4,519 bases of DNA from a virus (taxonomy: Duplodnaviria; Heunggongvirae; Uroviricota; Caudoviricetes), in IMG/VR virus record IMGVR_UViG_2734482581_000010; one strand, written 5' to 3'. Position numbers and translations under genes: made by a program. Within the stretch, counting starts at the first letter, position 1. Each line of letters opens with the position of its first letter. The notes below the pieces were generated by a model that worked only from the letters and a program-made list of their open reading frames with translations, was not told where the DNA came from and searched no databases. Shown piece by piece: positions 3,058-4,519 of the stretch.

Positions 3058-3711
3058 CTACTTAACAACCCTCGAATGGCTAACATTCGGACGCCAGCTC
3101 TCCCAGTTAAAATTCACCCAGCGCCCGNNNNNNNNNNNNNNNNNNNNNNNNNNNNNNNNNNNNNNNNNNNNNNNNNNNNNNNNNNNNNNNNNNNNNNNNN
3201 NNNNNNNNNNNNNNNNNNNNNNNNNNNNNNNNNNNNNNNNNNNNNNNNNNNNNNNNNNNNNNNNNNNNNNNNNNNNNNNNNNNNNNNNNNNNNNNNNNNN
3301 NNNNNNNNNNNNNNNNNNNNNNNNNNNNNNNNNNNNNNNNNNNNNNNNGATAGCTGCCGCTAAGTGATTCTTCCCGGTACCAGGTTTTCCGCTGAACGCA
3401 AAATTTGTACACCCGGTCATCAGTTCATCGGCGATGGATTTCGCCTGGCTTAACGCGTATCGCTGGCCGTCGTTCTGCACCTGGTAATTCGCAAACGAGC
3501 ATTTACGGTGCAACGGCTGGATGCCTGAGCGATTCAGAATTTTTTCCACCCGCAACTGGCGATTCAGGCGGTTGATCTCCTCGCTACGTTTCTGGCCTTC
3601 AGCAAGTTGCCACTCGCGCCACTCCGCTACCGTTCTGAATGGGGCGGTTACATGTGGCGGGGTCAGTCGGCGGATGCGTTCCAGAACGCCGCCTGTCGCA
3701 ATATTTTTCAT
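3058..3711 (-). CDS. dnaC: DnaC-like replicative helicase loader (AAA+), phage-type; CDS interrupted by the N gap
   Basis: The N-terminal 121 aa align with my recollection of E. coli DnaC (NRSGIQPLHRKCSFANY vs NRSGIRPLHQNCSFENY) and include Walker A FSGKPGTGKNHLAAAI. The C-terminal WVNFNWESWRPNV matches the DnaC tail WVIFNWDSYRSRV. The middle of the gene falls in the 221-N gap, so length and frame across it are not real. Confidence 0.85.
   Translation of the reverse strand: MKNIATGGVLERIRRLTPPHVTAPFRTVAEWREWQLAEGQKRSEEINRLNRQLRVEKILNRSGIQPLHRKCSFANYQVQNDGQRYALSQAKSIADELMTGCTNFAFSGKPGTGKNHLAAAIXXXXXXXXXXXXXXXXXXXXXXXXXXXXXXXXXXXXXXXXXXXXXXXXXXXXXXXXXXXXXXXXXXXXXXXXXXGRWVNFNWESWRPNVSHSRVVK
3128..3348. 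other. run of 221 N (assembly or scaffold gap, or masked region)
   Basis: Directly visible as n characters. It lies inside the DnaC-like gene. Confidence 0.98.
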
Positions 3712-4110
3712 GGTCCGTTACCCCCTGAAGCCTGGCGGGATCGCACTGTCCGGCAACGAGACGGTGTTAACCTGTCGGAGCAACGTCTCAGGCCGAACAC
3801 CTTTCGGCGCGAACAGGCCCTGGTATTCATTGGCGATGCTGTGTCGAATCACCTGCTCAGGTGTAAAACCCTGCTGACGGAATTTTTCCAGTTCCCGTAT
3901 CGCCCCGTTAGCGCCCTGCTCCGTTCGAATCGGTTTTCGCAATGCCTGTCTGAACCGGACCCACTCATGCCAGAGTGTTTCCGGCAACCAATCGGGCAGC
4001 TCAATAGCCTCCGGCTCGAATTTTTTAGACGCTCGTTTTTGGCGAGGGGGAGATCAGTATTTAGATCTTCCTCTTCCTCTTCCTCTGGTAACGCTTTTTG
4101 ATCCGTTTGT

Positions 4111-4129
4111 GTAACGCTGGCAGCGTTAC
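4111..4129. repeat. 19-bp dyad-symmetric site GTAACGCTG-G-CAGCGTTAC (iteron-like)
   Basis: Perfect 9-bp inverted arms around one central base, read directly from the sequence. A GTAACGC half-site also occurs at 4088..4094. Confidence 0.45.
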
Positions 4130-4318
4130 CTTTTCGTTTCAGTTCGCGTATTTTTGTTACTCGCTCGTTTGTAACCGCCCGTTTTTTTTAGAGCTTTTTC
4201 CGTTATGACGTTCAAAGTTAGGTAGAGAAAGCCCTCCGTCATTTTCGACCAGCCATCCAACCTGAATTAACGCATCAGCAAAACCAGACATAAAAGTGAT
4301 GCGATCTATTGCACTTTT

Positions 4319-4339
4319 TGTAACGCCGCGAGCGTTACA
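4319..4339. repeat. 21-bp dyad-symmetric site TGTAACGC-CGCGA-GCGTTACA (second copy of the same motif)
   Basis: Perfect 8-bp inverted arms with the same GTAACGC-N5-GCGTTAC core as 4111..4129. Related GTTAC-N10-GTAAC at 4156..4175 and a TTAACGC half-site at 4267..4273. Confidence 0.45.
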
Positions 4340-4394
4340 ATCTGCATTACCGTCTATCATTTGTTGATCCGCCCATGCCCAGAAGCGAATAACC

Positions 4395-4519
4395 TGAGGT
4401 AGCCTGAGTTTAACGGACACTCCTTCCTGAAATAGAATGGCATCAGAAGGAGCTAATAATGAGCAGAAAAACCCAACGTTACTCTAAAGAGTTCAAAGCC
4501 GAAGCTGTCAGAACGGTTC
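4395..4519 (+). mobile_element. left end of an IS3-family insertion sequence (partial; continues beyond the window)
   Basis: Terminal sequence TGAGGTAGCCTGAGTTTAACGGACAC starts with TGA and has GGACAC at positions 21 to 26, the same layout as the IS3 left inverted repeat as I recall it. It is followed 64 bp later by an OrfA-type start. Confidence 0.75.
4459..4519 (+). CDS. IS3-family transposase OrfA, N-terminal fragment (continues beyond the window)
   Basis: ATG at 4459 preceded by AGAAGGAG with a 6-nt spacer. Translation MSRKTQRYSKEFKAEAVRTV matches the N-terminus of IS3-family OrfA proteins; I recall this exact start from an IS600-like element but cannot verify it. Confidence 0.8.
   Translation, partial: MSRKTQRYSKEFKAEAVRTV

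Follow-up and report, generated by a model that had tools for sequence, protein, structure and literature searches.

The window analysed here, a stretch of 4,519 nucleotides from a tailed phage (Caudoviricetes; IMG/VR record IMGVR_UViG_2734482581_000010), carries a cluster of GTAACGC/GCGTTAC dyad repeats inside the gene of a phage replication initiator. Comparison with related phages and prophages makes it probable that these repeats are iterons, bound by the initiator, of a prophage replication origin embedded in the initiator's own gene. An initial annotation made from the letters of the window had proposed such a lambda-like arrangement, and it is the reading that best fits the comparative evidence, because the sites, as judged from alignments, are conserved at the DNA level, follow a 12-bp period, are restricted to the initiator gene, have cores specific to the initiator lineage and adjoin an easily melted tract that is locally the least stable DNA. 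Binding of the initiator to the sites, unwinding beside them and initiation of replication there are what we infer from this pattern. What the window holds is the relic of such an origin in a prophage undergoing decay, since the gene has been truncated by the insertion sequence (IS) IS600 and frameshifted; it could fire only with an initiator supplied in trans by a related prophage.

Repeat sites in the window

The window contains six copies of GTAACGC or its complement, where 0.43 would be expected, and this number is not reached in any of 200 dinucleotide-preserving shuffles. Five of these copies lie within 4088-4338, while the sixth, at 2250, is unrelated. The exact dyad GTAACGC-N5-GCGTTAC is found twice, at 4111-4129 and 4320-4338, where 0.09 would be expected even with up to three mismatches. 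The initial annotation was therefore right that the repeats far exceed chance, and its coordinates are correct, including those of the palindrome at 4319..4339, in which T4319 and A4339 extend the arms to 8 bp. The sites, the tract beside them and the gene that holds them are as follows.

4320..4338: cluster A dyad GTAACGC-CGCGA-GCGTTAC (half-sites 4320-4326 on the plus strand and 4332-4338 on the minus strand), in codons 54-60 (CNARGVT), a low-confidence loop of the modelled N-domain
4344..4350: degenerate half-site GCATTAC (GTAATGC on the gene strand) with one mismatch, 12 bp from the 4332 arm
4111..4129: cluster B dyad GTAACGC-TGGCA-GCGTTAC (half-sites 4111-4117 on the plus strand and 4123-4129 on the minus strand), in linker codons 123-129 (GNAASVT)
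4088..4094: plus strand, extra half-site GTAACGC, read as GCGTTAC on the gene strand in 'KALPE'; its start is 23 bp from the arm start at 4111
about 4051..4086: candidate unwinding element, made of an AT-rich piece at 4051-4067 between two GATC sites and a 21-nt all-pyrimidine run of the plus strand at 4066-4086 (on the gene strand, a repeat of GAG GAA)
3718..4395: minus strand, remnant of the initiator gene in the Rac-like 'ydaU' position, from alignment to intact copies, translation and PHROG 2509

The position of the degenerate half-site (gene nucleotide 149) is occupied by an exact GTAACGC in most homologs. Several lesser elements had been listed along with the dyads. The half-site at 4088-4094 is conserved, but that at 4267-4273 reads TTAACGC, a match in six of seven positions, in codons with ordinary synonymous variation; the GTTAC-N10-GTAAC dyad is present at 4156-4175 as described but is broken in a 93%-identical relative. 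The sites had moreover been placed in and around the linker-coding part of the gene; only one cluster lies in the linker: the other lies in the N-domain loop, and a third, before the start codon, has been cut off by IS600.

Conservation of the sites at the DNA level

Homologs of the initiator were taken from annotated phages, from a set of one genome per species and from metagenomes. About 40 homologs, with 32-100% amino-acid identity and with hosts as diverse as Escherichia, Xanthomonas, Ralstonia and Vibrio, have a common layout, in which the half-sites are mostly 12 bp apart, a cluster in the N-domain loop and another in the linker are separated by about 200 bp, and a third often precedes the ATG. 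The initial annotation had pointed to related prophages as the place to look for conservation of the dyads, and in intact homologs they are indeed conserved together with their spacing. Enterobacterial prophages with 61-73% identity in the N-domain carry half-sites at gene nucleotides 149, 161 and 173 and at 346-427. The place of cluster A holds a dyad in all GTAACGC-type homologs, and GTAACGC is retained in both places in homologs at 43-56% identity, among them those of Xanthomonas CP2, Pseudomonas PAN70 and VW-6S, Ralstonia YL1 and several metagenomes. Intact copies have a third perfect dyad, TGTAACGCTCGCAGCGTTACA (cluster U), in the non-coding ydaT-ydaU spacer 14-32 bp upstream of the ATG; in the window, IS600 separates cluster U and the 5' end of the gene from the remainder. 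In a Pantoea sp. prophage (locus L019) the upstream cluster at 1438-1483 is an exact 46-bp copy of the in-gene cluster at 1642-1687, 204 bp off, as if an entire group of iterons had recently been duplicated or converted.

Alignment of these homologs shows selection on the sites to act on the DNA and not on the protein, because the linker dyad is read in differing frames, the third dyad is non-coding, the arm codons are frozen and copy number changes in 12-bp steps. The linker dyad lies in frame 1 in most loci (xGT AAC GCx ... xGC GTT ACx, encoding GNAxSVT) and in frame 0 (GTA ACG C.. ... GCG TTA C, encoding VTxxALQ) in BUCT554, TL-2011b, a Klebsiella phage and a Samsonia prophage. The steps of 12 bp, or four codons, produce (G/C/S)NAx peptide repeats. 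Codon usage was compared in 18 non-redundant homologs with a median nucleotide identity of 67%, setting codons whose third base falls in a dyad arm against 85 others. The median frequency of the commonest codon is 1.0 in the arms against 0.56 elsewhere (Mann-Whitney p = 2.5e-6), with Asn AAC, Ser AGC and Val GTT each used in all 18 homologs. The stretch CAA AAA GCG TTA CCA GAG GAA GAG GAA is equally frozen (p = 9e-6), and its first five codons, which include the half-site at 4088, have top-codon frequencies of 0.88-1.0. A second frozen patch was seen at about 4176-4200 of the window (gene nucleotides 301-320, alignment columns 115-119); it reads TCn AAA AAA CGG GCn CTT AC, like a half-site with one extra base, and its two Lys AAA and its Leu CTT are each invariant in the 18 homologs.

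The repeats might conceivably be a by-product, either of coding, if a (G/C/S)NAx peptide were under selection, or of recombination, as a shared mosaic joint kept alike by recent exchange. The sites do encode a GNAx tetrapeptide repeat, and the linker is a mosaic boundary between differing N- and C-domains. We nevertheless give this explanation next to no probability: the same DNA core is found in two reading frames and in non-coding DNA, synonymous freezing is confined to the dyad arms and the GA tract while the spacer bases vary, and the conservation extends, at 43-48% protein identity, to Xanthomonas, Ralstonia and Pseudomonas phages, for which recent exchange is implausible.

Geometry of the clusters

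The 23 loci compared for geometry contain 173 half-sites. Neighbouring half-sites are exactly 12 bp apart in 81 pairs, of which 53 are convergent and 28 direct, and 23 bp apart in ten pairs, in the orientation seen at 4088/4111. The two internal clusters are present in nearly every locus. In epsilon15 and phiPSA1 (loci L121 and L125) the first cluster is at gene nucleotides 55-101, in helix-coding sequence, instead of 149-173; the position of the N-domain cluster is thus not fixed. Helical phasing of the two dyads was considered and dropped: their separation of 198-264 bp in the GTAACGC group is near whole turns at 10.5 bp per turn, but the 279 bp of epsilon15 and the 300 bp of phiPSA1 do not fit, and the argument depends on the assumed helical repeat.

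Palindromes of this kind could also act as hairpins in RNA or single-stranded DNA (ssDNA), in mRNA stability, translation control, antisense termination or as a signal of the primosome-assembly type, rather than as duplex sites. Each dyad folds into a 7-10-bp hairpin of -10.7 to -15.9 kcal/mol (z from -2.3 to -3.9), the plus-strand dyad at 4111-4129 followed by CTTTTCGTTT scores as terminator-like, and the change from GTAACGC/GCGTTAC to GTCACGC/GCGTGAC that separates two lineages preserves pairing. However, 39% of the half-sites lie outside any convergent pair, as orphans or direct repeats unable to pair, and the linker cluster of marine contig L114 is a lone GTCACGC. The arms are near-invariant over 43-100% protein identity, without compensatory drift or G-U-type asymmetry. 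One terminator was counted against 0.7 in shuffles; a T-rich tail follows one of the two window dyads (intact copies have three dyads), on the antisense strand only. A role as hairpins instead of duplex sites is highly improbable on this evidence.

Restriction to the initiator gene and co-variation with its lineage

The complete genome of vB_EcoS-666R9 has three full dyads and those of BUCT554 and TL-2011b have two each, all of them in or just before the initiator gene, and half-sites elsewhere stay at background level. In epsilon15, both GTCCGC-N7-GCGGAC dyads and eight of the 18 copies of the hexamer lie in the initiator gene, against 0.41 expected; the curated record of this phage has no origin feature at the gene (35179-35856).

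The core itself differs between lineages. In other homologs, whose identity is similar to or lower than that of the distant GTAACGC-type ones, both clusters carry GTCACGC/GCGTGAC in contig L114, TGTCACA in a Vibrio phage, GTAGACG/CGTCTAC in Ralstonia phage Raharianne and (T)GTCCGC/GCGGAC(A) in epsilon15 and phiPSA1. There are six cores in six lineages and one core per genome in both clusters, save in L025, where GTTGCGC/GCGCAAC could be made out in the linker cluster only. Cores differ even within a host genus or group, as between Ralstonia YL1 and Raharianne, Pseudomonas PAN70 and phiPSA1, or the enterobacterial BUCT554 and epsilon15.

These observations bear on the other possibility raised by the initial annotation, that the repeats are operators for a different DNA-binding protein, either a host factor or a phage regulator. 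Several helix-turn-helix (HTH) proteins are encoded nearby, the CII-like YdaT, a Cro/repressor pair and a DUF977 HTH protein being the candidates. Yet within 1.5 kb on each side the 25 loci have no gene in common but the initiator, the next most frequent real gene occurring in ten; a host factor is hard to reconcile with the differing cores of phages that infect one host genus; four phage genomes have no full dyad in the immunity region or elsewhere beyond the initiator gene and the DNA just before it; and no DnaA box with two or fewer mismatches was found within 3950-4400. Binding of another protein is accordingly disfavoured, and we hold it to be very unlikely.

The initiator could instead use the dyads as autoregulatory operators, repressing its own transcription or translation or blocking transcription, with replication starting elsewhere. 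This would explain the co-variation with the initiator equally well. In 12 of the 23 loci a dyad covers the ribosome-binding region, 14-42 bp ahead of the ATG, and in iteron plasmids Rep proteins use inverted half-iterons near the rep start as operators. Autoregulation would leave the conserved low-stability, strand-asymmetric tract described below with no role, though, and operators inside the reading frame, 160 and 370 nucleotides downstream, would be oddly placed. Moreover, it is the upstream cluster that is missing in about half of the loci, whereas the internal ones are nearly always there, and no other origin-like set of repeats was seen. As the sole function of the sites autoregulation appears unlikely. 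The two roles are not exclusive, and autoregulation through the upstream dyad may coexist with origin function.

Candidate unwinding tract

A polypurine GA repeat and, beyond it, a short AT-rich piece come after the linker cluster in every lineage. The GA repeat is translated in differing frames, as EEEEEE or REEKRRE. When stability is averaged over 25 loci, the 40-bp minimum between -300 and +900 falls at gene nucleotides 380-450, where purine asymmetry is also strongest (mean purine fraction 0.70, up to 0.95 in single loci); in most loci the minimum comes right after the linker cluster. The initial annotation had drawn attention to T-rich runs next to the sites. Their positions were correctly given, but the runs are not conserved, the T8 is a mutation and the region 4151-4199 has only average to slightly low stability. 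The tract at about 4051-4086, just left of the interval then proposed, is the better candidate for the unwinding element.

GATC (Dam) sites occur in and around the putative origin, as a pair at 4052-4066 and at 4100-4103, 4304-4307 and 4366-4369. Two of them bracket the AT-rich piece beside the GA tract, and this pair is present in the Rac prophage of E. coli K-12 too.

The initiator and its decay in the window

Intact copies of the initiator gene are 789 bp long and encode 262 amino acids (for example WP_038340159), in which a linker joins an N-domain of predicted winged-helix-like fold to a DnaT-like C-domain. The intact protein is matched over its full length by PHROG 2509, 'replication initiation protein', and no Pfam family, Phage_rep_O included, matches the intact protein or the window fragments at E up to 0.1. 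The description of the gene as 'O-like' was therefore mistaken as far as descent is concerned: the protein is an analogue of lambda O and not a homolog. Sequence similarity links residues 170-262 to the ssDNA-binding C-domain of E. coli DnaT (2ru8, E 9.5e-5; 9zbt, E 3.2e-4), and PF17948 is found among precomputed matches on homologs of the initiator. The NCBIfam DnaT model scores only 16 bits, far under its cut-off, so the C-domain is best taken as a domain relative of DnaT and the protein not as DnaT itself.

In the structural model the N-part has helices at residues 16-25, 29-46, 61-68 and 73-80 and a hairpin at 84-91, with a core predicted local distance difference test score (pLDDT) of 80-94; the predicted fold is winged-helix-like. 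The pLDDT drops below 50 in the loop at 50-57 and in the linker from residue 125 on, and the repeat sites fall within such segments modelled as disordered.

The copy in the window is a pseudogene, already broken by three lesions. Alignment to intact copies shows that it lacks codons 1-34, IS600 having inserted after codon 34; that 10 bp are deleted after 4044; and that the T8 at 4182-4189 is T6 in every intact homolog. The deletion and the T6-to-T8 change together frameshift the gene. At the deletion (window 4041-4050), AGGGGGATTT is one unit of the direct repeat AGGGGGATTTAGGGGG, which suggests slippage.

A model for initiation and its weak points

In the mechanism that we propose, the winged-helix-like N-domain would bind the 7-bp core, as a dimer on convergent pairs 12 bp apart and in register on the extra direct copies. 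Binding would fill the two clusters in the N-domain loop and linker codons and, in intact copies, the third one just upstream of the ATG. The resulting complex would stress the adjacent GA-repeat/AT-rich tract and cause it to melt, and the DnaT-like C-domain together with the DnaC-like YdaV would then recruit host DnaB. Where the next gene downstream of the initiator in the homologous loci can be named, its product is a helicase of the DnaB type, a primase-helicase or a loader of the DnaC/IstB kind; L115 and the Vibrio phage have a gene for a small unnamed protein in this place.

Several points weigh against the sites being origin iterons. We found no published binding or origin assay for this initiator family, nor any literature on GTAACGC iterons, DnaT-type phage initiators with iterons or the epsilon15 origin. 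The clusters hold two to four sites each at a distance of about 200 bp, compared with the tight array of four in lambda, and the tract beside them is GA-rich and not strongly AT-rich. The palindromes, as said above, would also fold as hairpins. Among close relatives (n = 55) the arms are not significantly less polymorphic than the remainder, with 4 of 49 against 86 of 529 variable columns (p = 0.09). Finally, the protein alignment offers no independent recognition residues: about five of the eight class-specific columns (N55, A56, V59, T109 and V113) are themselves encoded by iterons.

Comparison with known origins

In phage lambda the origin lies in the middle of gene O and consists of 19-bp iterons, which are imperfect inverted repeats, and an AT-rich tract; extra iterons add residues to O (PMC7466680). 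The arrangement proposed here resembles that of lambda, 933W and P27 in several respects: the origin lies at the junction of the DNA-binding N-part and the loader-recruiting C-part of the initiator, dyad-symmetric sites are followed in the direction of transcription by an easily melted, strand-asymmetric tract and then by a helicase-loader gene, and extra iterons lengthen the protein. The AT-rich region of lambda also has a purine-strand bias. The present arrangement differs in that the initiator is not of the O family, the core has 7 bp and recurs every 12 bp where lambda has iterons of 19 bp, the sites are spread over two or three small clusters some 200 bp from each other and not gathered in one array of four to six, one cluster lies inside the coding region of the DNA-binding domain and the adjacent tract is a GA repeat.

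The Rac prophage of K-12 (ydaU-ydaV, oriJ) has the same genomic position and the same C-domain module, the last 276 bp of the gene and ydaV being 93% identical, but its N-domain is unrelated (YdaU family) and its ydaU has no GTAACGC sites. The ydaU linker (L007:3418-3490) carries repeats of its own, three to five copies of the 12-bp (A/G)TGTTCAAACA and an inverted copy, followed by an AT-rich, GATC-flanked, purine-rich segment and CCCCCTAAATCCCCC, the same as in the window. In K-12, then, another N-domain goes with other repeats at the corresponding place in the linker, which suggests that N-domain and repeats travel as a single module. The K-12 repeats are plausibly the iterons of the classical oriJ; the oriJ/ydaU literature that we found mentions oriJ only as an active origin, without sequence detail.

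Comparable logic is met outside this group. Iteron plasmids such as P1, F, pPS10 and R6K use winged-helix-type Rep initiators that bind repeated sites, and separate clusters flank or adjoin rep and can pair. In Bacillus phage SPP1, oriL lies within gene 38, so that the replisome organiser G38P has its sites in its own gene, with helicase loader and helicase genes after it; SPP1 differs in protein family, repeat sequences and host group, and no homology was detected.

Neighbouring genes

The window corresponds to the early-right region of a Rac-like prophage and is read on the minus strand; its genes are, in order, a DUF1367 gene, hok, QueH, zinc-ribbon gene, DUF977 gene, ydaV and initiator gene. 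The features beside the initiator gene are the following.

990-1202: toxin gene of the hok/gef family, hokD in the matching RefSeq record
1373-2059: QueH (epoxyqueuosine reductase) gene, within the prophage
3058..3711: minus strand, ydaV, DnaC-like helicase loader gene directly downstream of the initiator, from RefSeq and GenBank annotation of matching genes
4396..4519: plus strand, left end of IS600, with the orfA start at 4459; homology to intact initiator copies ends at 4395

A run of N at 3128-3348 masks the middle of ydaV. The RefSeq label of the element matching the right end of the window is 'IS3-like element IS600 family transposase' (IS3 family). Together with the closest protein clusters, which bear the names Shigella flexneri and Shigella sonnei, IS600 points to a genome of the Shigella type.

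Implications

The origin inside an initiator gene is a known design, which would here be realised in another family of initiators and with its iterons split between clusters; as far as we have found, phage origins made of split clusters of iterons with a period of about 12 bp inside the initiator gene have not been described. It is possible, though we would not yet call it probable, that they form a widespread class, of which the window has one relic copy and in which lineage-specific iterons of this period occur twice in the initiator frame and often a third time upstream, a GA-repeat unwinding tract adjoins them and the initiator bridges the clusters by looping or wrapping. As the iteron codons also encode loop residues beside the putative recognition helix, a change in these nucleotides would then alter both the binding site and a part of the protein that reads it.

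If the sites are iterons, the origin would be located for a large group of temperate phages and prophages, whose curated records, such as that of epsilon15, currently lack one. The group comprises epsilon15-like, Xanthomonas, Ralstonia, Pseudomonas and Vibrio phages and the Rac-like prophages, which occur in 681 of 5426 complete E. coli genomes. The cores GTAACGC, GTCACGC, GTAGACG, GTCCGC and TGTCACA, each with its initiator, would then constitute a natural series of initiator/site pairs for the study of specificity change in a small DNA-binding domain. The four-residue indels and frozen codons provide a clean case of cis-elements constraining a protein sequence, and, for annotation, frozen synonymous sites together with peptide repeats in initiator genes can flag embedded origins.

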